A stretch of 64,000 bases of DNA from Octopus sinensis. Its lineage: Eukaryota. The notes beneath the pieces were generated by a model that did no database searches, had not been told where the DNA came from, and worked only from the letters and a program-made list of their open reading frames with translations. Both the position numbers and the translations under genes were made by a program. Within the stretch, counting starts at the first letter, position 1. Every line of letters begins with the position of its first letter. This document shows positions 8,396 through 57,312 of this stretch, piece after piece. Location of the stretch: contig NC_043007.1 of NCBI RefSeq assembly GCF_006345805.1, positions 22,940,001-23,004,000 on the forward strand, written 5' to 3'.

Positions 8396-8462
8396 ACAAG
8401 GATACAAATTCCATCAATTAGTATAATGAAAGTAATTAGTCTAACTGGTTTAAGTTACTTAC

Positions 8463-8672: not shown

Positions 8673-8852
8673 CTGCAAAAAAGAGAGAGAGAGAGAGAGA
8701 GAGACAAGATGAAGTAAAGCAAAAGAAATATTTATTATGAATATTACTTGGGAATAATCATGTAACTTCCTTACCGCAAAAAAAACCTGCACAAATACAA
8801 CCAAAATACACATAGTATACATGATGACATGTATCTCGAGTGTTTTTGCAAC

Positions 8853-9317
8853 AAGGGCTGTGGAGCCGGAGTCGTGGGGTTGGAATTGAGGAGTTGTGGA
8901 GTGGAGTCGTGGAGTCAGAGTCGTGGGGTTGGAATTGAGAAGTCGGAGTCGTGGAGTCAGAGTCGTGGAGTCGGAGTCAAGGAGTCGGAGTCATAGAGTT
9001 GGAATCGGAGTCGGAGTCAGAAACAATTAAGGGGCAGTCAGATTTGGAGTCGGTAAAACTGTACCGACTCTGATTCCGATGCACAATTTCTTTAATATAA
9101 ACCAGTTATAACATATCAGCCTACTCAAAGTACAAGCGTATGCATATGCTTTATGAGATATGTAGACCACAATCACTTAATTACATAAATAGGAGTCGGA
9201 GTCGGAATCAGTGTCAGAGTTGGAATCGGAGTCAGAATAGGAGTCGGAAGTGCCAATAGTACAGGTGTCGGAGTCAGAATTGGAGTCAAAGTTTTTTGTT
9301 TCGACTCCACAGCCCTG
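8853..9317. mobile_element. hAT-type MITE with internal GGAGTC repeats
   Basis: TIR (A/C)AGGGCTGTGGAG(C/T)CG; 8-bp TSD tttgcaac / cttgcaac; subterminal GGAGTC arrays. Confidence 0.8.
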
Positions 9318-9379
9318 CTTGCAACTCAAAAGACTATGGAGCATCAATATAAAGATTTATGAAGTAACAGCAGCTTTAC

Positions 9380-9508
9380 CTTGTGGTTATAAGTATCAGC
9401 AACTATGAGGGGACCATCGGGAGAATCAGTTAACAGCTCAACTCCAAGAGGATGTTGCAATTTCGCCTCAATGCCGGAACCATCCACATCGCCATAAGCA
9501 AAAAGATT
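9380..9508 (-). CDS. NHLRC2: NHLRC2 exon 7
   Basis: [43 protein letters not shown]; tgtag / GTAAAG; 129 nt, phase 0/0. Confidence 0.95.
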
Positions 9509-9646
9509 CTACAATTAAAGATTAAGAAATAGATACCTGACATAATTAACAATTTATTTAAATTATATAAAATTTAAAAGAATTACTGTAGGTAAATAGA
9601 ATAAAAATTGGCAGAAAAAGGGAAATGGATCATCACCCTTCGTAAG

Positions 9647-9811
9647 TGCGCAGGAGTGGCTGTGTGGTAAGTAGCTTGCTAACCAACCACATGGTTCCGG
9701 GTTCAGCCCCACTGCGTGGCATCTTGGGCAAGTGTCTTCTGCTATAGCCCCAGGCCGACCAATGCCTTGTGAGTGGATTTAGTAGACGGAAACTGAAAGA
9801 AGCCTGTCGTA

Positions 9812-9897
<86 letters not shown>

Positions 9898-10101
9898 GTT
9901 TGTGTGTCTGTGTTTGTCCCTCTAGCATTGCTTGACAACCGATGCTGGTGTGTTTACGTCCCCGTTACTTAACGGTTCGGCAAAAGAGACCGATAGAATA
10001 AGTACTGGGCTTACAAAGAATAAGTCCCGGGGTCGATTTGCTCGACTAAAGGTGGTGCTTCAGCATGGCCGCAATCACATGACTGAAACAAGTAAAAGAG
10101 T
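9647..10101 (+). mobile_element. tRNA-derived SINE family A (other copies ~11757-12139 -, 13045-13454 +, 13662-14000 +, 27323-27703 +, 31468-31822 -, 39169-39583 +, 41725-42066 +)
   Basis: Head AGGAGTGGCTGTGTGGTAAG...GGTTCAG(T/C)CCC with A/B-box-like motifs, internal (TA)n/(TG)n, and GTAAAAGAGT tail; many near-identical copies. Confidence 0.85.
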
Positions 10102-13100
10102 AATGTTTACCATTCATTGGAGTGAGGCCATTCTGGGGCATTGCCTTCAAGGGTTTAACTCTTTAGCATTCAAATTATTGTCAAAGGTAACACTTATTTA
10201 TTCACATTGTTTTGAATTATTCATGCATTATCCAATAGCTCATAGCTGAGATGTGATTGTTTATTTTTAGAATGACATTGTAGGGTAGGTATGACAGGCC
10301 AGATCTGGCCAGCTTGAACATAAAAGAGGCAGGATATTTTGGCCAGATATGGCCTGTTTAAGTGCTAAAGGGTTAAATCAAACAACTCAATGACAGTACC
10401 TTTTCTTTTATTCCATTAGTCTCTTATGCCAAACCTCTTTGTCACTGGCATGTAAACAAACCAACACAGGATGTCAAGCAGTAATGGGAGAGAAATACTC
10501 ATGCACACACAGATATACACATATACACAACAGGATTCTTTCAGTTTCCATCTACTAAATCCATTCATGAGGCATTGGTCAACCTGGACCAATAATAGAA
10601 GACAACTGCCCAAGCTGCCACATGGTGAAAATGAACCTGAAACCATGTGGTTATGAAGCAAACTTCTTGACCACACCTGCAGCCATCTAAATAATTTACA
10701 TTTTTATATAAAGGGTAAAGGCCCCCTTTGGTCATAAATGACCTTGGGATTGCACCTAGAAAGTTACCCTTCAAAGACTGACACAGTTTGGCACCAGTGA
10801 TGTCGCAACTCATTTCTACAGTTGAGCGAAATGGAACAATGTGAAATAAAGTGTCTTGCTCAAGAATAAAACACACAACCCAGTCCAAGAATTGAACTCA
10901 CTACCCCATGATTGTGAGCCCGACTCTAACCACTGAGCCATGCGCCTTCACTTACATTTACATAATACTATAAATACGTAATATTTTATAGTTATATATT
11001 AATTAAAATATTATATGTAATTACACAATAATTTATACAATTATGTAGGAGTTTATGTCAATTATGATTCAATTAAATATGATGAGAAGATTACAGTGAT
11101 TTGAATTTACTGAACTTTGAATCTCTTATTTATATTATATATATAACTTGTTATATATTACTATATATATATAGCTAAATTATATATATAAGAGCGCATA
11201 TATATAAATACAAACAATGAAATTAAAAGATGGGAGAAATACAGTAAACATCTCTCATAATAACACACCTTGTAATTAAGAAGATTAATTATGTGTGAAA
11301 TAAAGCCATGATAATTAGGATTATTGAAGGGGATTAGTGACACCGGCCAAAGTTATATTTTCCAAACAACGTTCTAAATAGCCAGTAATCCTCCCTCCCA
11401 TGTGAACACGCACAACTGAACCTATCAAAGGTTGCTTGACCAGTTAGAAATAATCTTCAGGTCATACCATATTTACTTGGGTAGTCCTCGTATATGCTGC
11501 TATTTTGATGCCACAAGTGTCTGTGTGTCTACAGACTGTATGCATGGTCACATTTGGTTGTGTGGTAGGTAAAGTATTTCTTTTCGTAACCATGTGGTCT
11601 CAGGTTCAGTCCCACCATGCAGCAATCTCGGGCAAGTGTCTTCTACTATCATCTCAGGCTGATCAAAGCCTTGCTAGAGAATTTGGTGGAGAAAAACTGT
11701 GTGTGTATGTGTGTGCATGCATGCATGCACATGCACACATATGTTATTCTTTTATTCTCTTACTTGTTTCAGTCATTTGACTGCGGCCATGCTGGAGCAC
11801 CGCCTTTAGTCGAGCAAATCGACCCCGGGACTTATTCTATCGGTCTCTCTGGCCGAACCGCTAAGTGACGGGGACGTAAACACACCAGCATCGGTTGTCA
11901 AGCAATGCTAGGGGGACAAACACAGACATACAAACACACATACACACATATATATACATATATATATACATATATACAACAGGCTTCTTTCAGTTTCCAT
12001 CTACCAAATCCACTCACAAGGCATTGGTCAGCCCGGGGCTATAGCAGAAGACACTTGCCCAAGATGCCACGCAGTGGGACTGAACCCGGAACCATGTGGT
12101 TGGTTAGCAAGCTACTTACCACACAGCCACTCCTGTGCCTATGATGAGCTTCTTTCAATTTCTGTCAACCAAATCCATTCAAACAGCTTTGGCCAGTCTG
12201 GGGCTGTAGTAGAAGACACTAGTCCAATGTGTTGTGAAGTGAGACTGCACAGTCATGTGGTTGAGCGACAAAATTTGCACTACACACCTATGCCTGAAAC
12301 AACTTAACCCTTATTTCTTTAAACATATACGAGCAAAACGCCTCCCGTCCAATGGACAGTGCTGAGTTGTCAAACATTTAAACCAAATTTTCTCAAATCA
12401 ACTTGTCCGACTGTCCCATTTTGTGGCATTATTTCAAGCCAGCTGGCTTTTTTTGTGCAAACTGTATGTGCATTTTTCTCACATACGTGTAGTATCGATT
12501 GCAACAGCTGATGTACTTGCGCGTACAAATGCACATTCCCACGGCTTTATCGATCGCATTCTCACCTGGAATCGATTTTTTTTATTTTGTAAGACTTATA
12601 CAAACCCTGATACCATCGGTATCTACATATCAAATTTGAACACAATCGGATGGAGGATGCCTGAGATCCTAGAAGACACACAGACAGACAGAACGGATTT
12701 TATATAATAGATTGGTCCTTCCCAAACCACAGGCCCACAAGGCCAGTTTCCTGGATTCTGTGGTGTATTTATTCCTTCTGGGATAGGATGCCAGTCCATC
12801 GCAGAGTTACTCCTTTTTAACAGCTGAGTGGACTGGAGCATTGTGAAATGAAGTGTTTTGCTCAAGAACACATCACCCAGTCCAGGAATTGAAACCACAA
12901 TCTTATGATCATGAGTACAACACCTGACCACTAAGCCATGCTCCTCCACATATACATACATAAATGTGAATAAATATATATGTATGTATTTTGGTCACAT
13001 AATCATGTAAAAAAAGATGTATACATATGTAAATATATATATATAGGCGCAGGAGTGGCTGTGTGGTAAGTAGCTTGTTTACCAACCACATGGTTCCGGG

Positions 13101-13210
13101 TTCAGTCCCACTGCGTGGCACCTTGGGCAAGTGTCTTCTACTATAGCCTCGGGCCGACCAAAGCCTTGTGAGTGGATTTGGTAGACGGAAACTGTAAGAA
13201 GCCTGTCGTA

Positions 13211-13250
<40 letters not shown>

Positions 13251-13454
13251 TGTGTGTGTTTGTGTGTCTGTGTTTGTCCCCCTAGCATTGCTTGACAACC
13301 GATGCTGGTGTGTTTATGTCCCCGTTACTTAGCGGTTCGGCAAAAGAGACCGATAGAATAAGTACTGGGCTTACAAAAGAATAAGTTCTGGGGTCGACTT
13401 GCTCGACTAAAGGTGGTGCTCCAGCATGGCCGCAGTCAAATGACTGAACAAGTG

Positions 13455-13486
<32 letters not shown>

Positions 13487-14134
13487 TTTGTTTATTAAAG
13501 CTACCATTGGTTTCATGTTAAGAAATATCTTAACAATATTTCAAGCCAATTGTATAGAAAAATTGTTGAGATATTTCTTAACATGAAACCAATGGTAGCT
13601 TTAATAAACAAATAAAGAATGAGTGCTCAATGTGGTGTTGAGCACACATTCTCATTGTTCATAGGTGTTGGAGTGGCTGTGTGGTAAGTAGCTTGCTTAC
13701 CAACCACATGGTTCTGGGTTCATTCCCACTGCATGGCACCTTGGGCACGTGTCTTCTACTATAGCTTCAGGCTGACCAAAGCCTTGTGAGTGGATTTGGT
13801 AAACGGAAGCTGAAAGAAGCCCATTGTATATATGTATGTGTGTGTATATGTTTGTATCCCTGTAACTTAGCGGTTTGGCAAAAGAGACCAATAAAATAAG
13901 TACTAGGCTTACAAAGAATAAGTCCTGGGATCGATTTGGTCGACTAAAGGTGGTGCTCCAGCATGGCCACAGTCAAATGACTGAAACAAGTAAAAGAGTA
14001 TTTACTTTCAACTCTCTATTTAACTGAATATGAACTATATGCTTTTATATATATATATATATATATTTGACAACATGGTCACATTAGTAAATATATTTTT
14101 GACAATATAGGTACACTAGTATATATTAAGTTAC

Positions 14135-14360
14135 CGTAGGATTCCTCTCAGCTCCAACAACTGCTCGGACGGCCTGTGATTTCAGGTCAAAACACCGAAT
14201 ACTTGAACTCTCACAGTCAGCGATGTAGACACAATGCTGTGATGGACAGTAAGTTATTCCGGATGGCTGTGCAAAGGAAGCTTTCAAAGGGTAGCTGTTG
14301 TTCCGGTTCTCTTCACACCCACTGCCAGCAACGCAGACACAGGTGCCGCATTCATATTGG
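14135..14360 (-). CDS. NHLRC2: NHLRC2 exon 6
   Basis: QYECGTCVCVAGSGCEENRNNSYPLKASFAQPSGITYCPSQHCVYIADCESSSIRCFDLKSQAVRAVVGAERNPT; EENRNN and FAQPSG motifs; aacag / GTAAC; 226 nt, phase 2/0. Confidence 0.95.
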
Positions 14361-14637
14361 CTGTTGTATAGAATATTTAGAAAACAAATACAAAAAAATC
14401 AGGTAAAAAAAAATGACTTCAGTTTTAACAACAGCAACATAATAAATGCTAAAATGGCCAGCTGGCAGAAACGTTAGCAGGCCGGGCGAAATGCTTAGCG
14501 GTATTTCGTCTGCCGCTACGTTCCTCCGACTGTGAGTCCGCTGCCCTAACCACTGGGCCATTGCGCTTCCATGCTTTTCTCAAAAAACAAAATACCCAGT
14601 AGTTGTAAGGCAATACTGTGATGAAGTGGTTATTTAC

Positions 14638-14731
14638 CTCTTTTGAAACCAGACTGTATCTTGCAAGAAATAGGCCCAGATTTGATGTGAACCAGCCAGA
14701 GCAATCAGGAGGACATCAGGTTTACCAGAAA
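14638..14731 (-). CDS. NHLRC2: NHLRC2 exon 5
   Basis: (V)SGKPDVLLIALAGSHQIWAYFLQDTVWFQK(S), matching the family motif IAMAGTHQIW; tttcag / GTAAAT; 94 nt, phase 1/2, bridges exons 4 and 6 exactly. Confidence 0.93.
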
Positions 14732-15760
14732 CTGAAACAGAAATTAGATTTTATACCTAACACTTTTAGAAATCACAATGTTATAAATTACTCTGGTTTT
14801 TGTCACATTATGGGGGTACAAGACAAATCTATCAATGCAGGGCAAGCTAGTCTGTTACTGGTTAACTTCTCTCAAGCTGAAAATCTGATACCAATCACAA
14901 ATAGCCAAGTTAGGCTGACTCCAGCTGCTATAATAATAATAATAATAATCTTTTCTACAAAAGGCACAAGGCCTGAAATTTTGGAAGAGGGGTTAAGTCA
15001 ATCACATTGACCCAGTACTCCACTGGTACTTAATTTATCAACACTGAAAGGATGAAAGGCAAAGTTGACCTTAGTGGAATTTGAACTCAGAACATAAGGA
15101 CAGGCGAAATGGCACTAAGCATTTTGGCCAGCGTGCTAACCATTCTGCCAGGAACTTAGAACATAAAGAGCCAGGACAATTATTGCAAGGCATTTGTTTT
15201 ACATTCTAATAATTTTGTTAATAATAATAATAATAATCCTTTCTACTATAGGCACAAGGCCTGAAATTTGCAGGAGGTGATAAGTTGATTACACCAACCC
15301 CAGTACTCAACTGATACTTATTTCATTGACACCGAAAGGATGAAAGACAAAGTTGACCTTGGCAGAATGTGAACTCTGAATGTAAAGACAGATGAAATGC
15401 TGCTATGAATTTCCCCTGGTATCCTAATGATTCTGCAAGCTTGCCTCCTTAAAGAATTATTAAGGTAATATTTCCTTGTGACCGGACATGTTTTTGCAGA
15501 AGATTGGAAACAAAGGATATCACATGCATGATGGTGACACTCATTTACAACTATCATGTGATACCAAGGCAAGGTGATAGTAAGAGTCTCACACACATAC
15601 TCATGACAGGCTTCTTCCAGTTTCAGTGGGACTGAACCTGGAATCATGGTCATGTGGTTGAGAAGCAAACATTATACCATACAGTCATACAAGAACCATG
15701 TTGCGGTCCTACAACTGTACATAATACTATTAATATCTTTTATTCCTACAGGGTACTTAC

Positions 15761-15893
15761 CAACAGAAGGTACCATCACCAAATCATAAGGAGAGCAAAG
15801 TTGTTGTTGTGTACCAAGTTTTCCTCCTTCTTTATCATCACCTTGGAAACCGGTTCCTGCAATTGTGGTGACTTTATTGTTGGTCAGATCAAT
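15761..15893 (-). CDS. NHLRC2: NHLRC2 exon 4
   Basis: IDLTNNKVTTIAGTGFQGDDKEGGKLGTQQQLCSPYDLVMVPSV; tgtag acceptor, GTAAGT donor; 133 nt, phase 0/1. Not in the ORF track in this frame. Confidence 0.93.
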
Positions 15894-17457
15894 CTACAAT
15901 GACACAGGGGAATCAGAAAACAATATGAGTTAGGGAGAATAACAGGTACTACGTGACTCAAATTGCATGGAATAATTTAGGAAGAGTGACAGATACTGAG
16001 TAACTCAAACTCCCGAGTGTGAGTCATGGAGAGTAATGCTATTGAGTCACTTGAACTCCAAAGAACAAGTGGAACCGATATTGAGTGACAGAAGAAGTAA
16101 ACTACAGACTCTAAATGAGTAGAATTCAGTTGATTCTGTTAGTGAAGCAGAAACCAACCACATGAAACAGGGAGCTTCTATGTATCTACTTGATCTACTG
16201 AATGTAGCAACCAAGACTTCCCCTACAAACGCCTGTCTTTTAAAATAGGGTCCATAGATTAAAAGTTGAGGACCATATATTCTCTGGTAAATATATCATC
16301 ACCACAATCAGAAGGTTGATCAAATTGATTTTCAACCCAAAGTGTTATATTGGAAAACATTCTTCCATGTCCTGAGTCCAGTTGCCATTGGCTAGTTTCA
16401 GGTGTATATTTCGTTTGTCACTGTTATTTATGACAACCCTAACCTTAAAACCTTAACCCTAAGCCTAAAACCCTAACCCTAAAACCAGTACAAACACACG
16501 AACGATGTCATAAATAACAGTGGCAAACGAAAAATACACTGCCAATGGTTGTTGTTGACAAACAACGGCAGTAATTTTATTCAGCTGAATACACGTCATT
16601 GATTGGTTGAAATTACCAAAATAGGACAACTTTAACGTGAAATTACTTCGTAAATATAAGCTTTTCTCAAAAATGTTAAGAGTAAAATATATTTTATATG
16701 ACACATTCTACCAGTGTCCAAAGTTTGAAAGCGTTTAGTTACCGATTGGCTTCTGTGCCAGAGGCACGTAAAAAGCACCATCCAAACATGGTTGATGCCA
16801 GTTCTGCTTTACTAGCTCCTGTGCTGGTGGAACATAAAAAGGACCCACTACACTCTTGGAGTGGTTGGCGTTAAGAAGGGCATCCAGCTGTAGAAACTTT
16901 GCCAGATCAGATTGGAGCCTGGTGTAGACTACTGGCTTGCCAGTCCCCAGTCAAATCGACCAACCCATGCTAGCATGGAAGACGTTAAACAATGATGATG
17001 ATGATGACATGCTAGAAAATGCAACCAAATTACATAAAAATTACACCCTACCAACTTTAAAAAGGACACAATGGAGAATATGGTCCTAGATATATACATA
17101 TATATATACATATAAAGAGAGAGAGAGAAAGATGTGTGTATATATATATATATATACAGAGAGAGAGAGAGAGAGAGAGAAAAAGACTCCAAAGAAAGGG
17201 AGAAGAAGAAAATAGAGAGAGCAAAGAGAAAGGGAGAAGAGAGAAAGAGTAGAAGAGAGAGGAAGAAGAGAAAGTGTGTAAGAGAGAAAATGAGGGAGTG
17301 AACATGTGAGAGAGTGTGTATGAATGAGAAAGAGAGAGAGAGTAAATATACATGAGAGAGTGTGAAAAAAGAGTATGCATGTGAGAAAGAGAGAGAGAAA
17401 GTGTGTGTGTGTGTGTGTGAGAAACAGAAAGAGAGAGTGTGTGTGAGTGAGCGTTAC

Positions 17458-17592
17458 CTTTCTCACGGAATGGTTGTCACAGTCTGCAACATACAATGTC
17501 TGGTGGTTTAGCACTAAACCCTGAGGATTATTGAATCTGGCATTTTGAAAAGAACCATCTTGAAATCCTTTCTCAGGTCCTCCAATAACAGT
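17458..17592 (-). CDS. NHLRC2: NHLRC2 exon 3 (NHL repeat)
   Basis: TVIGGPEKGFQDGSFQNARFNNPQGLVLNHQTLYVADCDNHSVRK; tttcag acceptor, GTAAC donor; 135 nt, phase 0/0. Confidence 0.95.
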
Positions 17593-17835
17593 CTGAAATA
17601 ACAAGAGTAGAAACATGTATAACTATGTGTCACCCATGACCTGAACATGGATAATAGTCTTGCTTTCCAAATGGTTTCCTTAACAATTTCTAATGACATT
17701 GAATACAATGATAACGGTGAATCCATCTCTCTCACACACACACATACAGAGGTACACACATTAAGAGGCACACATATGATAGTAAGAAAAAAATGATAAA
17801 AGCAATGATGATGGTGATGATGATAATATATAATA

Positions 17836-18390
17836 TTGGGTCGTCCGGAAAGTTCGTGCCGATTTTTAAAGGAAATTAAAAGGTCAATAAATACTTGTTA
17901 TTACCCAAGCATTACCAGGTGTTCATGAATGATGGATTATGATAGGTTGAGGCTTTCTGCCAATCCTCGGGTTGTGCAATGTGGGTTATTCTCAATTAAT
18001 GACTTGATTTGGTCATCATCTGTAGTGGATGGTCTGCCTGATCATTCTTTATCAATAAGGCTACAATCTCCAGCTCAGAACCTTGCGAACCACTTCCGTA
18101 CAGTTCTTTCGGATAAAGAAACATCAACGTAAACTGCACATATTTCTTTGGTTGCTTGTGAAGCATTTTTCCCTTTGCGGAAAATGAAAAGCATCAAGTG
18201 CCGAAAACAAACCTTCTTATCTTCCATTTTAAAGGGTTACAGAATTAACACAGGTTATAGGAACATAAATGTTCTTCCATGAAAAGATAGCTTAAACTGT
18301 GCTCTAAATGGAGGTGTAGTCAAATCCTATTCTAAAATAAGTCGAAAGGTAAGCTACTATAAATCGGCACAAACTTTCCGGACAACCCAA
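17836..18390 (-). mobile_element. Internally deleted mariner element
   Basis: 30-bp TIRs TTGGGTCGTCCGGAAAGTTCGTGCCGATTT / AAATCGGCACAAACTTTCCGGACAACCCAA with TA TSD. From 18227 on minus: MEDKKVCFRHLMLFIFRKGKNASQATKEICAVY...RTVRKWFARF*, an HTH region with stops. Confidence 0.9.
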
Positions 18391-18929
18391 TAGTTACAAC
18401 AATAATGTAATGATGATGATGATGATGATGATGAGGGTAGTAGTAGTGGTTGTGATATTAGTTTGAGGAGATAATTATGGTAATGACAATGATAATAGTG
18501 TGATAATATTGACAGTGGTGATGGTGATGGTTTTGGAAATATTCTCTTCTGCTCTAGGCACAAGGCACAAAATTCTGGGAGAAGGGGCTAGTTGATTTAA
18601 TCGGGGTTGATTAAATAAGTACCAGTTACATACTGGGGGCGATATAATTGACTTAATACATTTGTCTGTCCTTGTTTGTCCCCTCTAAGTGTAGCCCCTT
18701 GTGAGCAGTAAAGAAATACTATAGGCACAAGGCCTGAAATTTGGGGGTGGGGGATAGTCGATTACATTGACCCCAGTATTCAGCTGGTACTTATTTTGTT
18801 GACCCTGAAAGGATGAAAGGCAAAATCGACCTTGGTGGAATTTGAACCCAGAATGTGAAGACGGACAAAATACCACCAAGCATTTCACCCGGCACGCTAA
18901 CCATTCTGCCAACCTGCCACCTTACTTAA

Positions 18930-19148
18930 CCCTGTAGTGTTCAGATTATCCTATCAAACATAATGCTTATTGATTCCCATTGATTTGAATTAATCAAGCA
19001 TTATCTCATATCTTCAAGATCTTGATGGTGTAATTACCTAATGTAGAATAACATTGTAGGGTGGGTGTGAGAGCCTGGATCTGGTCAGTTTGAACATAAA
19101 ACAGATTAAATATTTTGGCCGGATATGGCCGGTTTAAATACTAAAGGG
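18930..19148. mobile_element. piggyBac-like MITE family (copies also at ~10155-10376, 20038-20243, 21255-21468, 49418-49781)
   Basis: TTAA|CCC...GGG|TTAA ends; shared internal sequence (TTTAGAATGACATTGTAGGG, CCGGATATGGCC). Confidence 0.65.
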
Positions 19149-19278
19149 TTAATAATAATAATAATAATATTTTTAGTACTAGTGACAAAGATGATGATGA
19201 TAATGATGATGGTAGTGGTAGTGGTGATGATGATAGTGACACTGAAAAAGATGCCGTTTCTAAAATAAAAATACTTAC

Positions 19279-19880
19279 CTTAATGACACCTGAGGTAAGA
19301 TCACAGCCAAGTATCCTATTGTGACCACTGTCTGAAATGTATAACATTGACCCCTGACCATCAACACAGAGCTTTCCAGGAAACTGGAGAATGTCCTCGC
19401 ATCTCTCTAAATGATTTTTCTCTAAATGTAGCGGCAACTGGTGAGGTTTTATCAATCCAGTCTCCCCGTAATACTCCAAGGCAACATCAATAAATTCCAG
19501 TATTCTCTGTCTGTTACCTTCTCCAGCGAACGAGTGAAGATACTCATTGTTGGGTCCAAGGACAACAAAGGTTGGCCAACAATTTATCATGAGTTCATTC
19601 CAGAGGTAGGCCTCAGGGTCGTTAATGACAGGGTGCATGATGTTGTGACGTAGTACAGCATTCCTTACATTGTCCAGCACTTTCTCGTTGTTGAATTTAG
19701 CCGAATGGACACCGATCACAACCACACCTTTCTCTATGCTGTAAGTTTCTTCCAGGATTTCCAAGTCTGGCAAAACATGAAGGCAGTTCATGCAACAGTA
19801 AGTGAAGAAGTCTAAGACTGCCACTTTACCCTTCAGATGGTTGGTCAGCGAGAGAGGAACAGAGTTCAGCCAGTCACAAC
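19279..19880 (-). CDS. NHLRC2: NHLRC2 exon 2: thioredoxin-like domain and first NHL repeat
   Basis: 602 nt between AG acceptor and GTAAGT donor. Contains GKVAVLDFFTYCCMNCLHVLPDL, IGVHSAKFNNEK, WPTFVVLGP and FPGKLCVD...ISDSGHNRI, all NHLRC2-family motifs. Confidence 0.97.
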
Positions 19881-20912
19881 CTTCACAACAAACAAAAAGA
19901 AAGAAAGAAAAAGACATGAAAGTGTGAGAATAATATATATATGTGATACAGTAACACAAGGGTACAGATCTACATATCTAACCCTTTAAATATCCACCCA
20001 AAATATCCTACCTACAATCATCATCATCATCATCGTTCAACCCTTTAGTATTCATATTATTCTATCAAATATAATACTTATTCATCCATATTGTTTTAAG
20101 CTAATCATGCATTATTTCATAGGTTCAAGATTTCGATGATGTTATCACCTATTTTTAGAATGACATTATAGGTTGGTGTGAGATACCAAATCTGGGTAGT
20201 TTTAACATAAAACAGGTAAATTATTTGGGCCGGATATGACCAGTTTAAACACTAAAGGGTTAATGTCCGCTTTCCATGCTAGCATGGGTTGGACGATTTG
20301 ACTGAGGACTGGCGAACCAGATGGCTGCACCAGGCTCCAGTCTGATCTGGCAGAGTTTCTACAGCTGGATGCCCTTCTTAATGCCAACCACTCTGAGAGT
20401 GTAGTGGGTGCTTTTACGTGCCACCAGCACGAGGGCTAGTCAGGCTGTACTGGCAACAGCCACGCTCAAATGGTGTTTTTTTTTTACGTGCCACCTGCAC
20501 AGGAGCCAGTCCAGCAACACTGGCAATGACCTCGCTTGAATGTTTTTTCATGTACTACCGGCACAAGTGCCAGTAAGGCGATGCTGGTAATGATCATGCT
20601 CGAATGGTGCTTTTTATGTGCCACTGGCATGGAAGCCAGTTTGCTGCTCTGGCAATGATCATGCTCGGATGGTGCTCTTAGTGCTCCACTAGCGTGGATG
20701 CCAGTCATCGAATTTGATTTCGATTTCATTCAAAATGTCATTCGAAAAATAAAACAATCACACTATCAAACTGTTGAAGCTTTGAGATAATGCAATGACT
20801 AATTCAAAACAATGTGAATAAATAAGCATTACATTTGACAGAATAATCTGAATGCTAAATGGTTTAGAAGAGCTAATTCCTTTACGTGTGATATATACAA
20901 ATAAATGCACCC

Positions 20913-34600: not shown

Positions 34601-34671
<71 letters not shown>

Positions 34672-34675
34672 TATA

Positions 34676-35667
34676 CTAGCAGTATCGCCCGGCGTTGCTC
34701 GGGTTTGTAAGGGAAATAACTATAAGCATTTTTAGAGAGTTATAGCCAAAAAATAGCAAAAAAATGCATTAAAAACGGAAAAAAAATTATAGTAAATTTT
34801 TTTTAAATCGTTGACTCATCATAGACATTTTTAGAGAGAGTTACTTCCCTTGTATAATAGCAAAAAAATGCATTAAAATGGAAAAAAATGATGGTAAATT
34901 ATTTTTAAAATCGTAGACTCATCGTAGACGCGCGCTAATACCCAGAAGGGCTCGATATGAATCACGACTATAAGATACCCGGTTTTGGTTAAACTGCACC
35001 ACAAAATGTGGGAGTAGTTAGGAATCTAAATCGTAGGAGACAGACACTCACACAACTTCACTTTTATAGATATAGATATATATATGTACGAGCAAAATGC
35101 CGCTCCCACCCCCCCGTCCATTGGATGATGCTGAGTTGTCAAACATTTAAACCAAATTTTCTCAAAACAATTTGTCTGACCATCCCATAGGCCTCTCCTT
35201 TGAGAAACTGATTTAATCTAAATTTGAGACACCAGCAAAAGTAGAAATAAAGATGACTTTTTTTTTTCTATTCCAAAGAAAAACGATTTTATTCACACAA
35301 ATATGCAACCGAAGAGTTTAAAGTACCAGTAATGATAAGGCTGTTGACTGGGAGAACACAAACATGGTTTAAACAGTAAGCTTGGCAAGAAAGAAACGAA
35401 GTTAAGGCAAAATAATTTCTGACAGACAGAACGGATTTTATATAGCAGCTGATGTACTTGCGTGTACAAATGCACGTTCCCATGGCTTTATCGATCACAT
35501 TCTCACCTGGAATCGATTTTTGTAATTTTTTCAAGACTTATACACACCCTGATATCATTGGTATCTACATATCAAATTTGAGTGCAATCAGATGGAGGAT
35601 GCCCAAGATCCTACAAGACACACAGACAGACAGACAGAACAGATTTTATACAATATATATATATATA

Positions 35668-35710
<43 letters not shown>

Positions 35711-36700
35711 ATATAATATATATATACTAGCAGTATCGCCCGGCGTTGCTCGGGTTTGTAAGGGAAATAACTATAAAGCATTTTTAGAGAGTTATAGCCA
35801 AAAAATAGCAAAAAAATGCATTAAAAACGGAAAAAAAATTATAGTAAATTTTTTTTAAATCGTTGACTCATCATAGACATTTTTAGAGAGTTACTTCCCT
35901 TGTATAATAGCAAAAAAATGCATTAAAATGGAAAAAAATGATGGTAAATTATTTTTAAAATCGTAGACTCATCGTAGACGCGCGCTAATACCCAGAAGGG
36001 CTCGATATGAATCACGACTATAAGATATCCGGTTTTGGTTAAACTGCACCACAAAATGTGGGAGTAGTTAGGAATCTAAATCGTAGGAGACAGACACTCA
36101 CACAACTTCACTTTTATAGATATAGATATATATATACGAGCAAAATGCCGCTCCCACCCCCCCGTCCATTGGATGATGCTGAGTTGTCAAACATTTAAAC
36201 CAAATTTTCTCAAAACAATTTGTCTGACCATCCCATAGGCCTCTCCTTTGAGAAACTGATTTAATCTAAATTTGAGACCCAGCAAAAGTAGAAATAAAGA
36301 TGACTTTTTTTTTCTATTCCAAAGAAAAACGATTTTATTCACACAAATATGCAACCGAAGAGTTTAAAGTACCAGTAATGATAAGGCTGTTGACTGGGAG
36401 AACACAAACATGGTTTAAACAGTAAGCTTGGCAAGAAAGAAACGAAGTTAAGGCAAAATAATTTCTGACAGACAGAACGGATTTTATATAGCAGCTGATG
36501 TACTTGTGTGTACAAATGCACGTTCCCATGGCTTTATCGATCACATTCTCACCTGGAATCGATTTTTGTAATTTTTTCAAGACTTATACACACCCTGATA
36601 CCATTGGTATCTACATATCAAATTTGAGTGCAATCAGATGGAGGATGCCCAAGATCCTACAAGACACACAGACAGACAGACAGAACAGATTTTATACAAT
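34676..36700 (-). repeat. Tandem duplication (period 1051 bp) of two head-to-tail Helitron-like non-autonomous elements
   Basis: Units start at 34676 and 35727 and are nearly identical. Each is a TC...hairpin(CCCGAGCAACGCCGGG)-CTAG element (34676-35076; 35727-36126) plus a second element (35088-35650; 36136-36696) also present at 12329-12711. Confidence 0.8.
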
Positions 36701-36720
36701 ATATATATATATAATATATA

Positions 36721-36757
<37 letters not shown>

Positions 36758-36800
36758 TAAATAAATGGAGTTGAACGCAGATGTTATTCAAATTCTTTTA

Positions 36801-36886
36801 CTTTCAACATATGTTTCGAAGACAACATTGGTTTTATTCCAAAGGAATAAACTGTGTAAAATAATGCAACCTTCTCATCAGGAAAG
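36801..36886 (-). ncRNA. Minimal type-I hammerhead ribozyme motif with extended stem II
   Basis: Minus strand: CUUUC-CUGAUGA-GAAG...CUUC-GAAAC-AUAU-GUU-GAAAG. 5-bp stem I; long stem II with inner hairpin UUUAUUCC/GGAAUAAA; palindromic stem III ACAUAUGU. Confidence 0.7.
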
Positions 36887-37092
36887 ATAAACAAAGGATA
36901 ATTCATTCATCCATTTACATATATATATATAAATTATTTTTGTTAAGAAAAACAGAAAGTTGCTAATTTCAAGCATTTGCTAGGGCTATTGATAATGCCA
37001 AAAGTGAAGCAATTCCATGATATCAATCAAAGCCACAGCTGTGGGACCAACTGCTTCCCTTCATGCCTCCTATCACTCAAACCCAGAATACA

Positions 37093-37338
37093 TTATCCAA
37101 CTATATTTCGATCTCTTATGACTCCAGCTTCATGTAGAGACATTAGCAGAGCCTTCACGAACATCACCAGTTGACCATGGGGACTATTCTTCCCTTCGTA
37201 ATCATGGGTGTGCAGCAGTTTAATTGCTTCTCGGCTGAGTTTGGTGAACAGGCTCAGCACGCGATTGAGATCCTTCATGCCAAATGAGTCTGCTGCTCCA
37301 ACCAGCTGCCAGATGTGGTTAATTGTTGAGGATGTATC
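37093..37338 (-). CDS. Orphan secreted protein, terminal coding exon
   Basis: tattttgcag|GAT ACA...GGA TAA; 81 aa of non-repetitive, amphipathic-helix-like sequence; AATAAA on the minus strand at 36838-36833. Confidence 0.75.
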   Translation of the reverse strand, partial: DTSSTINHIWQLVGAADSFGMKDLNRVLSLFTKLSREAIKLLHTHDYEGKNSPHGQLVMFVKALLMSLHEAGVIRDRNIVG

Positions 37339-37604
37339 CTGCAAAATAGCATGTTAATGATATGTTATGTAAAGTATAGAAGTGTATTACATGATGTGTA
37401 AATATTATCAAGTATTGAGTTTGATATTAATACATAATGGGAATTAATCCATATGTGTTTTTTTAAATGTCAGAAATATCATTTATGCAAGTGGCAATAA
37501 ATCTATCTGTTTTTTTTTTTTTAAATTCTGTTTATATCTCTCCACACATACACATACATACACACATCCCACCTCAAATATATATGTGTACACACACACA
37601 CACA

Positions 37605-37923
37605 CGATGGTGGCGGTGACAGTGGCGATGGCGGTGGTGGCTGTGGTGGTGGTGGTGGTGATGGTGGTATTAGTTTTGGTGGTGGTGGCTGTGGTGGTGG
37701 TGGTGGCGGTGGTGGCGGCAGCGGTGATGGCTGTGGTGGTGGTGGTGGTGATGGTGGTAGTAGTTTTGGTGGTGGTGGCTGTGGTGGTGGTGGTGGTGGC
37801 GGCAGCGGTGGTGGCTGTGGTGGTGGTGGTGATGGTGGTGGTGATGGTGGTGGTGGCGGCGGCGGTGGCGGTGGTGGCGGTGGCGGTGGCGGCGGCGGCA
37901 GCGGTGGTGGTGGTGGTGGTGGC
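37605..37923. repeat. Compound (GGT/GGC/GAT)n microsatellite
   Basis: Direct inspection; source of the poly-P/T/V ORFs. Confidence 0.95.
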
Positions 37924-38529
37924 ATGAGTTAGATAGTTATACATGGTTCTAATGAGTCAAGGACTGTATTGTACACCAGTATCTGCTTTGGTATGGTCCC
38001 TATGGCTGGATGCCCTTATTAGCACCCATGTGTATTGGGTGCTTTCTTTGTGCCACTGGCACTCTTGGGGTCACCATGTAGCTTGCAAGTCAACGATTCC
38101 AGGGCAGCAGGATGTTCGATGGGGATTAAAGTATAAAGGAAGAGATTAGTGGGCAGCAGCTACAAGACTATTCACCTTTACAAGAGAGAATAAAAATGAA
38201 TTAGAAATATCTGCAAGGAGATGGACAGTGGTGATGAGGTATCCAGAGGGTATCTTAGGTAGCAGGAGTAGTAGTGAGTTGGGTGAATATATGATCATAT
38301 ATGAAAAGGACCCCCATTGGTCATTTGGACCCCAGTTGAGAACCATTGCTTTTAACTGTAGTGTGATTTAAGAGGTATTTGACTGCTATTTCTAGCAACC
38401 AGCTCAACTAACCATGTTAAGGCTTTTTCATCAGCTTGTCCCAGTAGTATTAGATAACCATAGAGGGAAGTGCAGTGTAATGATTATTGTAATGAAAAAT
38501 ATAGTTTGACCAGGTTCTAAAGTACTTAC

Positions 38530-38623
38530 ATTGTTTGAAACAATTTGCATTTCTAAGTGACCAAGTTGAAACTTCAGTTGTTCTATAATTTGGTCAGCCG
38601 TTAGGGACTTCTGAGAAGGGTCA
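38530..38623 (-). CDS. Orphan secreted protein, coding exon 3
   Basis: ttttttcctttcag|T GAC CCT...AAC AAT|gtaagt; DPSQKSLTADQIIEQLKFQLGHLEMQIVSNN; 94 nt, phase 2/0. Confidence 0.75.
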
Positions 38624-38749
38624 CTGAAAGGAAAAAAAGTTGGACAATGAGAGTGTGGCATTGTAATGTGAGCCTAAACTGTGGTAGTGTTGAGTAATAT
38701 GATGTTGTGTTGTATTCATTTATTGTAGTGTAATGTGTAATATATTATA

Positions 38750-39159
38750 CTAGCAGCTAAGCCCAGTTTCACCCGGTCTGTTTGGATAATGTGGCTGTGT
38801 TCATTTTCAGTTAGGCATAATCTATAAGAGCGTTTTTCAACCTTATCATTTCGGGTCCCCTGTTTCGATTGGAGCCTTCAGTTGTATGAAAATTTCCTGA
38901 CCCCACCCCGTCAGAAAACAGCTTCTAAGCAACTGGTTGTTTTATTGGCGGAAGAAAGAGGGGAATTCCATTAGAAGAAGATTTCATCGATTTTCTCCGT
39001 AAGTATGGGGGCTAGGAAAAAACTACAAACCACATTCCAATCTATGCACCTGTCTCCACATGTGTGCCCTTTTTCACTCAAATCCACCCAGCCGTTTGGC
39101 TGTGAACCTCAAGACAAGAAAGAATACAACAATCGTCTATCTCCAATTTATATTATAGA
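38750..39159 (-). mobile_element. Non-autonomous Helitron-like element
   Basis: On minus: A|TCTATAATATAAA...CCGGGTGAAACTGGG...CTAG|T (TC start, subterminal hairpin, CTAG end, AT target). Confidence 0.7.
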
Positions 39160-39331
39160 TTAAACATAGGCACAGGAGTGGCTGTGTGGTAAGCAGCTGC
39201 TTATCAATCACATGGTTCCGGGTTCAGTCCCCTGCGTGGCACCTTGGGCAAGTGTCTTCTACTATAGCCTCGGGCCGACCAAAGCCTTGTGAGTGGATTT
39301 GGTAGACGGAAACTGAAAGAAGCCCGTCGTA

Positions 39332-39365
<34 letters not shown>

Positions 39366-39811
39366 CGTGTATGTTTGTGTGTCTGTGTTTGTCCCCCCCC
39401 CAACATCACTTGACAACTGATGGTGGTGTGTTTACATCCCTCTAACTTAGTGGTTCGGCAAGAGATACTGATAGAATAAGTACCAGGCTTACAAAGAATA
39501 AGTCCTGGGGTCGATTTGCTCGACTAAAAAGGTGGTGCTCCAGCATGGCTTCAGTCAAATGGCTGAAACAAGTAAAAGAGTAAAGGAGTAGGCATGGCTG
39601 TGTGGTAAGAAGTTTGCTTCCCAACCACATGGTTCTAGGTTCCATACCACTGTGTTTCACTTTGTCTTTTACTAAACCTTCATACATAGATGCATACATA
39701 AACACATACATGCTTGCTTACAAACATACATATACATATATTGATAGCTATATACATAAATTCACTCATGCATGCATACATGCATACATATATAAACACG
39801 TACTTACATAC

Positions 39812-39842
<31 letters not shown>

Positions 39843-40172
39843 CTTGCTTGCATACATACCCTTTTATATATTAAGAGTGTAGCATGGCTGTAGTATGATG
39901 TAATGCTGTAGATATTTTATTCTGAGATGTGGGCTGGGAAAATATATTCTGAGATAATTGTACTTCATACAAAGAGAAGCAGAAACCTATTTGTATTACC
40001 TGTTCACTTTGTCAGAAACATCTGTTTCTTGTATAATTTCATGTTGCGGTTTACTGGAGTGTATCAAATACTGGTCCGGCTTCTCTCTGCCAAGGAAAAT
40101 ATCACAATGCATCAACGAACCTTCCTTTCCCAGCTTTTGTTTTTTACTCCCCACTCTCTGTCTCACACCATA

Positions 40173-40270
<98 letters not shown>

Positions 40271-40348
40271 CTCCCAACTCTGTCTCACTCCATATATGTG
40301 TGTGTGCATGTGTGTATAAATATATATATGTATATATGTGTATATATA

Positions 40349-40381
<33 letters not shown>

Positions 40382-40430
40382 GAATACACACACACACACA
40401 TATATATATATAGCCACTCTGTATCTCTCC

Positions 40431-40478
<48 letters not shown>

Positions 40479-40640
40479 GTATATATGTGTGTGTGTATGT
40501 ATACACACACACACATATTATAAATACATATTATATATATTATAGTTCAAAACTGAACAAAGAAACAAAACAGATGACAGAGACAGGTGAGGGAATAACA
40601 AACAAGATGTATTAGTTTAACACTCAGGGAAAATGGAAGA

Positions 40641-40680
40641 AGTCTATGATGTTTCAAACCTATGCCCTTCTTCAGAAAAG
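40641..40680 (-). ncRNA. Decayed hammerhead-like motif, same family as 29353-29394
   Basis: Minus strand: CUUUU-CUGAAGA-A-GGGCAUAGGUUU-GAAACAUC-AUAGAC. Flanks align by eye with 29330-29460; several differences look like CpG decay. Confidence 0.35.
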
Positions 40681-42274
40681 AATGAGGATGGGAAACAATG
40701 GAGAGAGGAAAGAAAAATGTGTCTGGATTAACGGTTGCATATGTTGAATTGACCAGAAGGAAGGAAGTGGTTGGGGACAAGGGTGGCTAGGGAGACAGCA
40801 GTGAGCTAAGGGAAATAACACAGGACAAATTCTGCTATGTTAAATACCTAACAATAAGAATTCTTGGTTTAGTAAGATCACCTCCTCCTCTAGAGGTTGT
40901 ATCATAATTACCAAATGGCAATGAAAAGTAGCTCCACTTAGGGAGGGGAGATAATCTCAAGTGTCAAGAATTCTCCAGAATAGACATGCCGTTAGGAAAA
41001 AGGAAGGCTTATTGTCTGGATACAAGAGGAGACCCATGGATAAATGTTTCTTATTTCTTTATTGCCCACAAGGGGTTAAACATAGAGAGGATAAACAAGG
41101 ACAGACAAAGGGACTAAGTCGATTATATCAACCCCAGTGCATAACTGGTACTTAATTTATCGACCCCGAAAGGATGAAAGGCAAAGTTGACCTCGGCGGA
41201 ATTTGAACTCAAAACGTTACGGCAGACAAAATGCCTATTTCTTTACTACTCATAAGGGGCTAAACACAGAGGGGACAAACAAGGACAGACAAACGGATTA
41301 ATCAATTACATTGATCCCAGTGCGTAACTGGTACTTAATTTATCGACCCCAAAAAGGATGAAATGCAAAGTCGACCTCGACGGAATTTGAACTCAGAATG
41401 TAACGGCAGACGAAATGCCTATTTCTTTACTACCTACATGGAGCTAAACACAGAGAGGACAAACAAGGACAGACAAACGGATTAAGTTGATTACATTGAC
41501 TCCAGTGCGTAACTGGTACTTAATTTATCGACCCCGAAAGGATGAAAGGCAAAGTCGACCTCAGCGGAATTTGAACTCAGAACGTAGTGGCAGATGAAAT
41601 ACGGCTAGGCATTTCTCCCGGCATGCTAACATTTCTGCCAGCTCACCGCCTTTGCTTTTATTTCTGCTTACTGATACCAGGTTGATAGGTACAAATACAT
41701 AAATTTATATAAAAAATACATAACCTGCGTGGCACCATGGGGAAGTGTCTTCTAATATAGCCTCGGGCCGACCAAAGCCTTGTGAGTGGATTTGGTAGAC
41801 GGAAACTGAAAGAAGCCCGTCGTATATATGTATATATATATATGCATGTGTGTGTTTGTGTGTCTGTGTTTGTCTCCCTAGCATTGCTTGACAACCGATG
41901 CTGGTGTGTTTATGTCCCTGTTACTTAGCGGTTCAGGAAAAGAAACCGATAGAATAAGTACTGGGCTTACAAAAGAATATGTCCTGGGGTCGAGTTGCTC
42001 GATTAAAGGCGGTGCTCCAGCTTGGCCGCAGTCAAATGACTGAAACAAGTAAGAGAGTAAAAGAGTGTAACCTCACAGCATGGTCAGCTAAACACATGTG
42101 ATAGTGCATTCTGAGTTACTGAGTATTATGAGCGGTTGCTGGAATGCATTTTTGTGGTACAAGCAGAATCTCTAACTGATCTCTGGCCTGTGATATCAGA
42201 GAACAATCTGTGATAAGCATAATGTGGTTCACAATTGAGCTTACTGTGTTACACCAGATCAGTGATGAATAAAA

Positions 42275-42657
42275 GGAGGCGCAATGGCCCAGTGGTTAGG
42301 GCAGCGGACTTGCAGTCATAGGATCGCGGTTTCGATTCCCAGACCGGGCGTTGTGAGTGTTTATTGAGCAAAAACACCTAAAGCTCCACGAGGCTCCGGC
42401 AGGGGATGGTGGTGATCCCTGCTGTACTCTTTCACCACAACTTTCTCTCACTCTTACTTCCTGTTTCTGTTGTACCTGTATTTCAAAGGGACGGCCTTGT
42501 CACTCTCTGTGTCACGCTGAATATCCCCGAGAACTACGTTAAAGGTACACGTGCCTGTGGAGTGCTCAGCCACTTACACGTTAATTTCACGAGCAGGCTG
42601 TTCCGTTGATTCAGATCAACCGGAACCCTTGTCGTCGTAACCGACGGAGTGCTTCCA
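42275..42657 (+). mobile_element. tRNA-derived SINE family C (also ~21579-21895 +, 50128-50233 -, 52758-53060 +, 54855-55162 -)
   Basis: GGAGGCGCAATGGCCCAGTGGTTAGGGCAGCGGAC...GGTTTCGATTCC head with A/B boxes; body shared among copies. Confidence 0.8.
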
Positions 42658-42796
42658 TGATGAATAAATAAAATTGATGGGCAAGGTTACACGTACTGGA
42701 AACAGAATATAAACTATCAGCCCTTTGGCTGGTTGCCTAATGCTCTATACAATCAAACAGTTACAAATAAGGATTAGATTCAATTTCAAATATTAC

Positions 42797-42818
42797 CTTC
42801 TTTCGTCATTTCCACAAC
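42797..42818 (-). CDS. Orphan secreted protein, 22-nt microexon
   Basis: tttctttgtttcag|GTTGTGGAAATGACGAAAGAAG|gtaata encodes (G)CGNDER(S). Phase 1/2 is what is needed to join the flanking exons. Confidence 0.68.
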
Positions 42819-44064
42819 CTGAAACAAAGAAAACAACAAATTTTACTATGGTAAGCTGCAACAAAGAAATCCTTTAAGTAATATAAAAGAAAACAAGGAA
42901 GATCTTCAGAGATTTCTTTTAGATTGGAACTTTATCTCTTCTGACAACTTATTATCAAAGCTGTAATGTTGCTAGAGGTGTAAGGGAAATAGACCACCTT
43001 GGGTGAAGCTTTTATGAGGGCAACACTTTTGTATAATCTTATATAGACTGTATAGATCCCAGTCGGGGTAGCAAATTCAAGGGTTGCCCTGAGCAGCACA
43101 CACATTTTAGCTTTGCTACAAGCGACTCTCTATAATAGTCATGGGCACACTGGGGTACAGGGGTTTTCCTGAATGGCATGCCAATAAAAAATTACCTTGA
43201 ATTATTTTAGCTGTACAGCCCACCTAATAATGAACCATGTCTCATGTGGTCTACTTCTCTAAAAACAAAGGTTGCTCGTGCCTGTTATATATGGTAACTC
43301 AACCTTCTAGAAACTGAAACAAGAGGGAGATTTGATCTATTAAGTTCAGCAATCAAATTTCCCTTGAATCACAGGTTATGTTCTTGAAAATAGTATAACA
43401 AATTAGATAACATAGACTTCAATAGACAAAAGACAGGATGGTCTTATGTGGTGACCACCACCACCACCACCAGCTATCAACAACAGCAACAACAACAACA
43501 ACAACAGTACCAACAAGATCAGTAACAAATGCAACAGCAATAGTCACAACAGCAGTACAGAAGCAGCTTCAAGAAAATTATTAACCATCTTACCAACAAT
43601 AACTCTGAGCACCTTTTCAAACTCCACCTATCTAACACCTGTGGACATGTATACAAAGTCAGAAAACAGCACAGCTCCCATGACTTTTGGAAACATTTTT
43701 TCACACTAAGTATTGCTGAAGTATGGAACAAACTGCCAGTATCAGTTGTTAGTTGTTGGAGCATTGCATCCTTCAACACTTCCATGCTTCCTGAGATTCG
43801 CCAACACTACACCTGATTTTCTCCCCTCCATACACACGCAAGCATGTATCTGACTCATACACTGTTCACTTTCCAGACATTTGTACATTACTGCATATGC
43901 TTTATATGCACTTTCTGACAAGTTGTGGTGCACCTGAGCACTGCATACAATAATTTCATTATCATTATAACAAGAACTACAGCCTCATCCATTACAACAA
44001 CAATAACACTTCCATCACTGTAACAATAACTGCCCCCCGGTAACCATTATAATATATAACATAC

Positions 44065-44119
44065 CTGCAGTGTTCTGCCAACAAAACAAAACTGCTGTGA
44101 TAAAAAAGAGGGTCTTCAT
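44065..44119 (-). CDS. Orphan putative secreted protein, coding exon 1 (signal peptide)
   Basis: ttttctattcttttag|CA ATG; MKTLFFITAVLFCWQNTA(G) has a basic residue, hydrophobic core and small residues; donor CAG|GTATGT; 55 coding nt, phase 1. Confidence 0.72.
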
Positions 44120-55873: not shown

Positions 55874-56111
55874 TGTGTGTGTGTGTGTGTGTATGTATGT
55901 TTGTCTTTGTGTCTGTCCCTCACCACCGCTTGACAGTCAGTGCTGGTTTGTTTACATCCCATAACCTAGATGTTCAACGAAAGAGACCGACAGAAATAAA
56001 TACTATGACTAGCCAGCGCGGTTGCGCGAGTACATGAGTGCGCGCACCGGGACCACTATTCTTAAGTAGTACCTCAAAGCAGCGCCCCATCCCACCACCA
56101 CCACCACCACC

Positions 56112-56880: not shown

Positions 56881-56989
56881 CACCACCACCACCACAATAA
56901 CAACACAGCCGCAGTTCAATGACTGAAACAAGTAAAAGCTAAAGCGGTTAATAAGAGAAAGAAGAGTTCTATCGTAGTTTCGTTTAAGT

Positions 56990-57312
56990 ATCCGGGCATT
57001 ACCTCCGCTTGATTCGACGCATGCGTATAATTGGGCACGTGTTGTGCATCTGCCTTCGCCGCCGCCGTCATCATCATAGTGATTGAGTCATTTAAAGCCG
57101 ACGACGACGAGCAGACATTTGGTCCGGATTGAACACGTCGCTAGAATAATCTTCAATTCCGATCGAACACGCAACAACAAACAATTCCCTCAACTACTGA
57201 AAAGTACCGTTTCAGTAATTCCACACCTGAACACCTGAAAGTCATTTGAACAATTAATTTTCTGAAACCCTGTTGCTTAAAAAAAGACAAAAACACACAC
57301 GTTTAGGTAAGT
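56990..57312 (+). promoter_or_regulatory. Probable promoter and non-coding first exon of a + strand gene extending beyond the window
   Basis: Unique CpG-rich sequence; palindrome ACGCATGCGT (57017-57026, NRF1-like), E-box CACGTG (57036-57041), GCC repeats, consensus donor AG|GTAAGT at 57306/57307. No coding exon found downstream. Confidence 0.45.

Follow-up and report, generated by a model that had tools for sequence, protein, structure and literature searches.

LOC115217579 of Octopus sinensis: a spliced gene with an optional exon, encoding a likely secreted protein of four predicted helices

What kind of protein is encoded by the small exons on the minus strand between positions 37,093 and 44,119 of our window, a 64,000-nucleotide stretch of Octopus sinensis contig NC_043007.1? 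A sequence-only reading had proposed four exons that join into a 138-residue secreted helical protein. We find that LOC115217579 exists as a spliced gene and has one exon beyond that proposal. Its five coding exons (phases 1, 2, 2 and 0) and candidate 3' end are as follows.

44065..44119, minus strand: coding exon 1, with the start codon and signal-peptide-like residues 1-18; a phase-1 intron follows
42797..42818, minus strand: coding exon 2, 22 nt, with the likely cleavage site and the mature N-terminal Cys-Gly
40000..40086, minus strand: cassette exon, 87 nt, phase 2-2, in frame, encoding a 29-residue polar linker
38530..38623, minus strand: coding exon after the cassette, with the end of the N-terminal tail, predicted helix A and the sequon Asn
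37093..37338, minus strand: last coding exon, with predicted helices B-D, a conserved C-terminal tail ending in Gly and the stop codon
36833..36838, minus strand: candidate polyadenylation signal, the sole AATAAA/ATTAAA within 36701-37093

The four exons first proposed have canonical AG/GT ends and form an open 138-codon frame, whose translation is the very protein first stated. That protein is RefSeq isoform X2, but this is not the sole form, the 87-nt exon having been missed. RefSeq already annotates both forms as uncharacterised LOC115217579 (XP_029643186.1 and XP_029643187.1): isoform X1, of 167 aa, contains the cassette exon, and isoform X2, of 138 aa, is the exon-skipping product. Annotations of O. 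vulgaris and O. bimaculoides likewise give a length of 167 aa, and the cassette has no counterpart in the Argonauta protein. One contig in each of three out of four runs (three studies) covers only 40000-40088 of the locus; the loose ends of these contigs carry letters of the 38530-38623 exon on one side and of exons 2 and 1 on the other, the 3' end of exon 1 being joined to exon 2. Because the loose ends hold neighbour-exon letters, three junctions of the 167-aa form are seen spliced. The splicing expected from the sequence-only reading is thereby partly borne out. The remaining run of the four examined, X17, had no contig on this exon. Judging from their lengths, two contigs, if colinear, would reach to about 36888 and 36854. 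The last exon was found in 20 of the 24 runs listed, all 20 without tissue labels and none recorded as RNA; 14 of them, from four studies, are guessed to be RNA.

How widely is the gene shared? Our searches turned up orthologues in no species other than three of Octopus and Argonauta hians, all octopods, in keeping with the lineage restriction suggested earlier: LOC106880006 (O. bimaculoides), CAI9730563.1 (O. vulgaris) and GAB1601351.1 (Argonauta hians), all uncharacterised or hypothetical. A repetitive protein of 3622 residues was dropped from the relatives as a chance match. The open frame is preserved in 4/4 species, as the earlier reading would have it, and over aligned columns the protein is 84% identical to that of O. 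bimaculoides and 52% identical to that of Argonauta. Overall, 64 of 172 columns are invariant, in an alignment of four species of which three are close relatives. A search of the O. sinensis genome found a single copy and no paralogue; three side matches (L002, L003 and L006; E 0.06-5.9), of which L002 sits amid retroelement-like frames, were dropped.

Several features stand out from this alignment. The N-terminus is hydrophobic, and cleavage before the Cys is among the top two sites in both lineages (matrix scores 4.55 and 4.97); in Octopus a cut after residue 15 reaches 4.75, and Argonauta sites leaving the Cys inside the signal peptide score 3.8-3.9. One Cys follows the signal peptide in all chains examined, with no internal disulfide and no cysteine scaffold, and no further segment reaches the hydrophobicity of a membrane anchor (the highest mean over 19 residues is 1.43 in Octopus and 0.95 in Argonauta). 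The N-D-T sequon is formed across the last exon junction, within an S-N-N-D-T loop that is invariant at 5/5 positions. Helix D is the most conserved helix (12/18 invariant), and the C-D loop, which contains one Lys, the least conserved segment (1/8). Within the helices, 24 of 38 hydrophobic positions are invariant against 17 of 38 polar ones, as expected for a folded core. Gly is the last residue in 4/4 species. The signal-like start, four amphipathic helices, sequon, lone Cys and terminal Gly are all kept in Argonauta, and on these features the sequence and the structural models agree with what was first described; a secreted, helical protein is likely.

The two AlphaFold models, built from four-sequence alignments and of low to moderate confidence (mean pLDDT 58.9 and 53.9; pTM 0.43 and 0.42), predict the same four helices with short loops between them: A-B, B-C and C-D loops of 5, 4 and 8 residues in one and of 5, 1 and 7 in the other. 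A two-copy complex prediction scored 0.02 (mark 0.32). Neither model had a Foldseek match at E <= 0.001, an outcome in line with the absence of a recognised family in the earlier reading. The best VIA-align Z values were 9.7 (rmsd 2.6, 92 aligned) and 8.6 (rmsd 2.9, 88 aligned), in the range that the tool calls common. The matches were alpha-solenoids, syntaxin-type bundles and designed proteins, and no cytokine, secretoglobin or apolipoprotein was among the best 50 listed. Searches by sequence likewise gave no described family: the best Pfam E was 0.13 for the 167-aa form and 0.0054 for any of 5 members, with no family common to more than two; PHROGs reached 0.0032 and NCBIfam 0.028; the single match among PDB sequences was a de novo designed helical repeat (E 0.024 and 1e-5); and the ESM Atlas gave no usable match. 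Saposin-like proteins have six conserved Cys, and this identity was rejected since that pattern is absent, a single Cys following the signal peptide. HPt phosphotransfer domains have a conserved phospho-accepting His before an x-x-K-G motif; here that position is occupied by Trp, the His close by gives way to Arg or Glu in other species, Pfam gives no match, and this identity was rejected too. According to PMC7378365, the up-up-down-down cytokine fold requires long loops; the short predicted loops therefore disallow that topology, and a cytokine- or hormone-type bundle in the strict sense, as once suggested, does not fit.

What might such a protein do? With somewhat less than an even chance of being right, our preferred reading is that the gene, single-copy and with two isoforms, makes a secreted, N-glycosylated helical protein that serves extracellularly as a ligand or binding protein and not as an enzyme; its functional step is read from anatomy. 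Cleavage of the signal peptide before Cys20 would leave a flexible tail, 15 or 44 residues long, with Cys-Gly at its start. The Asn in the invariant A-B loop would be glycosylated in the ER, and helices A-D would pack up-down-up-down. The binding surface may comprise the conserved helix D together with the beginning of helix B and the C-terminal tail, and the terminal Gly may be converted to an amide. At the end of the flexible tail, the lone Cys would most likely be a covalent tether, linked by a disulfide to another copy or to a partner; the optional exon would set the tether length.

A carrier of lipids or small hydrophobic ligands, whose helices would open on lipid as in exchangeable apolipoproteins or enclose a ligand in a dimer as in secretoglobins, is an unlikely alternative. 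Each helix is about half hydrophobic, the hydrophobic moment of helix C is high (up to 0.72), and the bundle is not locked by an internal disulfide. PMC11884772 describes secretoglobins as small, secreted chains of four helices that have a Cys near the N-terminus, three exons, phase-1 then phase-0 introns, and a proximal and a distal Cys through which an antiparallel dimer forms. The octopod protein shares the small chain with four helices, here predicted, the N-proximal Cys, and a phase-1 first and phase-0 last intron, but it lacks the distal Cys, has five coding exons and a longer chain, and shows no sequence similarity in our comparison. The same paper reports secretoglobins from vertebrates only and not from invertebrates. 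That there is just one helical domain, and no repeats, also counts against a carrier.

The protein might instead be an exocrine product (of saliva, mucus or egg coat) or a membrane-active gland secretion, in line with the gland origin suggested earlier, which we consider distinctly unlikely. It is small, signal-bearing and lineage-restricted, and its signal peptide is identical at 19/19 positions between two Octopus species, against 121/148 in the mature chain (chance about 0.02); between Octopus and Argonauta, however, only 5/19 signal-peptide positions agree. Gland effector families are commonly expanded, unlike this single-copy gene, and a pI of about 6 (near-neutral) in 3/4 chains and the want of a cysteine scaffold also speak against this origin.

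Improbable, too, is a lipid-anchored paracrine ligand, in which Hedgehog acyltransferase (HHAT) would palmitoylate the free N-terminal Cys and keep the protein near the producing cell. PMC8061759 names Hedgehogs and fly Spitz as known clients, and states that one of the first seven residues of a substrate must be basic and that position 2 may be Gly, Ser, Ala, Pro or Gln. The likely mature start is Cys-Gly in 4/4 species, so that position 2 is an allowed Gly in each; 3/4 species, all Octopus, have an Arg or Lys within the first seven positions; and an exon in the O. sinensis genome matches human HHAT chains (E 1.3e-11). However, Argonauta has His only in these positions, without Lys or Arg, the domain is unrelated to Hedgehog and Drosophila Spitz, and the cleavage site is uncertain. 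An N-terminal Cys is by itself insufficient: a Cys start is predicted for 87 human proteins, and none of them besides the Hedgehogs was shown to be an HHAT substrate. It is a long shot that the protein is a palmitoylated four-helix morphogen or paracrine ligand invented by octopods, an HHAT client of a new kind, distinct from the Hedgehogs and the fly EGF ligands, whose alternatively spliced linker would set the reach of the helical head from the membrane.

Only a slim chance attaches to a prohormone that would release a helical, amidated peptide some 30 residues long, comprising helix D and the tail. The terminal Gly, a possible amide donor, the strong conservation of helix D and the variable, Lys-containing C-D loop are consistent with it. 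In amidated neuropeptide precursors, conserved dibasic sites flank the conserved peptide; here no dibasic site is conserved, since the one at Octopus residues 24-26 has no counterpart in Argonauta and disappears from the 138-aa form, and helices A-C and the sequon are conserved, unlike prohormone spacers. A highly diverged four-helical cytokine (leptin, growth hormone, IL-6 or Unpaired type) acting through a Domeless/gp130-type receptor is scarcely credible: a size of about 120-150 mature residues, likely secretion and four helices are shared, and such ligands diverge beyond sequence detection, but the A-B loop of 5 and C-D loop of 7-8 residues are too short.

What does the gene offer for further study? 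It is already annotated yet unstudied, one more of the many lineage-restricted secreted proteins in octopus genomes. As the Cys-Gly start, the predicted glycosylated loop, helix D and the terminal Gly are kept between Octopus and Argonauta, the gene lends itself well to functional study. Its importance would rise if the product turned out to be a signalling ligand, and would be greatest if HHAT lipidates it. Neither the gene identifiers nor two short peptide motifs were found in any paper searched, and the gene was not found in the searched portions of the supplements of PMC9815951, PMC9712504, PMC13230822, PMC9476566 and PMC7693380. The uncharacterised signal-peptide protein obimac0019980, which marks immature optic-lobe neurons (PMC9815951), is likewise octopus-restricted and of no family. 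It is described as largely disordered with two helices, and its E value to O. sinensis is about 3e-88, against 2e-109 and 6e-84 in our pairwise comparisons; it is probably another gene.

An NHLRC2-like exon, without similarity to LOC115217579, adjoins the locus. Isoform X1 of O. bimaculoides is N-terminally extended, and two upstream stretches of the window may belong to the gene.

55912..55962, minus strand: repeat-derived stretch, candidate upstream exon sequence, 16/17 identical to residues 1-17 of O. bimaculoides isoform X1
56901..57310, strand unassigned: CpG-rich candidate promoter or first-exon region, with a minus-strand donor at 57003 and a plus-strand donor near 57307

The latter region holds 24 CpG per 300 bp, against a window median of 5.

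LOC115217579 is a genuine gene, present in the existing annotation and restricted to octopods; it belongs to no known family, and we correct here the exon structure proposed for it. Its product is likely a secreted helical protein. The sequence-only reading had proposed 138 residues encoded by four exons, and the region (G000:C11:22940001-23004000 in the genome assembly) indeed holds four minus-strand exons with canonical splice sites that reproduce this protein, but an extra 87-nt exon had been overlooked. Our reading of the region places it, AG/GT-bounded and in frame, at 40000-40086, where it extends the protein to 167 residues. RefSeq lists both products for Octopus sinensis, as isoform X1 (167 aa) and isoform X2 (138 aa). 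The coding exons are:

44065-44119, minus strand, exon 1
42797-42818, minus strand, exon 2
40000-40086, minus strand, cassette exon, skipped in the 138-residue form
38530-38623, minus strand, exon 3
37093-37338, minus strand, last exon

Contigs from four public sequencing runs were aligned to 39875-40150. Three runs, each from a different study, gave one contig apiece, covering only 40000-40088; the fourth gave none on this interval. The loose ends of the three contigs carry the start of the next exon on one side and exon 2 followed by exon 1 on the other, and the cassette exon is therefore spliced in. Of the splicing proposed earlier, the exon 1/2 junction is directly seen, as are exon 2/cassette and cassette/exon 3, while the last junction is present in annotated proteins of four species. 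In run X1 (a sequencing run, not the isoform) the contig measures 145 nt. With a word length of 31, an alternative branch formed by an 87-nt cassette that has 2 nt in common with the skip path would have exactly this length (85 + 2 x 30), from which we infer that the long and skipped forms both occur in that run. Each of the three contigs is one letter off the genome within 40000-40088, which may reflect an allele or RNA editing. The last intron contains an imperfect GGT/GGC repeat (37607-37925), and the long open frames that it produces, rich in Gly, Pro, Thr and Val, do not point to a gene.

Relatives were sought among 5.8 billion clusters, the queries being the last exon, the complete protein and a profile, and by a full HMMER pass with the last exon over 1.84 billion representatives. 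As the suggestion of a lineage-restricted protein had anticipated, these searches matched only O. sinensis, O. vulgaris (orthologue at 99%), O. bimaculoides (84%) and Argonauta hians. The Argonauta protein has 142 aa, is 52% identical over aligned columns and lacks a counterpart of the cassette exon. Nothing from squid, cuttlefish or other molluscs turned up, although the most sensitive search relied on a single 81-residue query, which distant relatives may escape. Searches of the O. sinensis genome gave no second locus. Gene and protein identifiers are not named in the searched literature, nor was the gene found in the accessible parts of the supplements of PMC9712504, PMC13230822, PMC9476566 and PMC7693380, some tables of which may carry tissue data. 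An uncharacterised signal-peptide gene, obimac0019980, marks immature optic-lobe neurons (bioRxiv 10.1101/2022.06.11.495763; PMC9815951); it could not be mapped to LOC115217579, which its published description, in the portions available, fits poorly.

What might such a protein do? Residues 1-19 are hydrophobic, in keeping with the proposed signal peptide, and a polar tail follows, longer by 29 residues in the long form. The mature chain probably begins with Cys-Gly, because a von Heijne matrix gives cleavage before Cys the top score in Argonauta (4.97) and, in Octopus, the second-best score behind a site after residue 15 (4.55 versus 4.75). AlphaFold, run on four-sequence alignments, predicts four helices for the Octopus chain and likewise for the Argonauta chain (mean pLDDT 58.9 and 53.9), at 35-54, 60-73, 78-101 and 110-127 of the 138-residue form, which agrees with the roughly four amphipathic segments first noticed. 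The sequon and terminal Gly singled out earlier are both invariant.

Positions identical in O. sinensis, O. bimaculoides and Argonauta
A-B loop, including the sequon: 5/5
Helix D: 12/18
Helix B: 8/14
Helix A: 10/20
Helix C: 11/24
C-D loop: 1/8
C-terminal tail, including the last Gly: 5/11

Since an invariant surface sequon accompanies the signal peptide, the protein presumably passes through the ER; the invariant residues show no obvious catalytic or metal-binding pattern. We tentatively propose, at slightly short of even confidence, that the protein is secreted and glycosylated and works non-enzymatically as a helical ligand or binding protein, with its single N-terminal Cys serving as a tether. 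The data show the gene structure and its conservation; we infer secretion, glycosylation, the fold, the tether and the function. Secretoglobins offer a fair working analogy, although the octopus protein has neither the gene structure that defines them nor their distal Cys (PMC11884772). The Cys-Gly start also resembles Hedgehog, and a ligand lipidated on this Cys by Hedgehog acyltransferase (HHAT) would be of high interest. For a chain cleaved before this Cys, the published HHAT rules hold in three Octopus species, and the genome carries an HHAT-like exon at locus L013:1501-1686 (G000:C10638:1727-1912, minus strand; E 1.3e-11 to human Hedgehog acyltransferase chains), the one of nine MBOAT matches tested, picked by eye. 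However, the rules hold only partly in Argonauta, and because an N-terminal Cys alone is insufficient for HHAT (PMC8061759), we consider lipidation unlikely on present evidence. Two further MBOAT matches on small contigs, L007 and L008 (G000:C12622 and C2502), have equal span and score and internal stops; they are possibly one locus assembled twice. The cytokine-like reading suggested earlier is disfavoured in its strict sense because four-helical cytokine topology requires long loops (PMC7378365), whereas the loops in the AlphaFold models are short.

In O. bimaculoides, isoform X1 has an N-terminal extension that agrees with 55962-55912 (minus strand) in 16/17 residues, which suggests that the transcription unit begins about 12-13 kb before the start codon, perhaps in a CpG-rich stretch near 57 kb. 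The match sits in a repeat with about 10 further copies in the window at 70-79%, and may be an exon derived from this short repeat. The CpG-rich stretch (56901-57310) has splice donors in both directions and is a candidate bidirectional promoter. A gene with thioredoxin and NHL-repeat parts (exons at 8436-19977, minus) is located downstream in the same orientation; we take it to be NHLRC2 or NHLRC2-like, and it has no similarity to the helical protein. Just past the 3' end of LOC115217579, a segment of about 1.07 kb is present in two tandem copies (34634-35708 and 35684-36754) with 98.8% identity, which reflects either a recent duplication or an assembly artefact.
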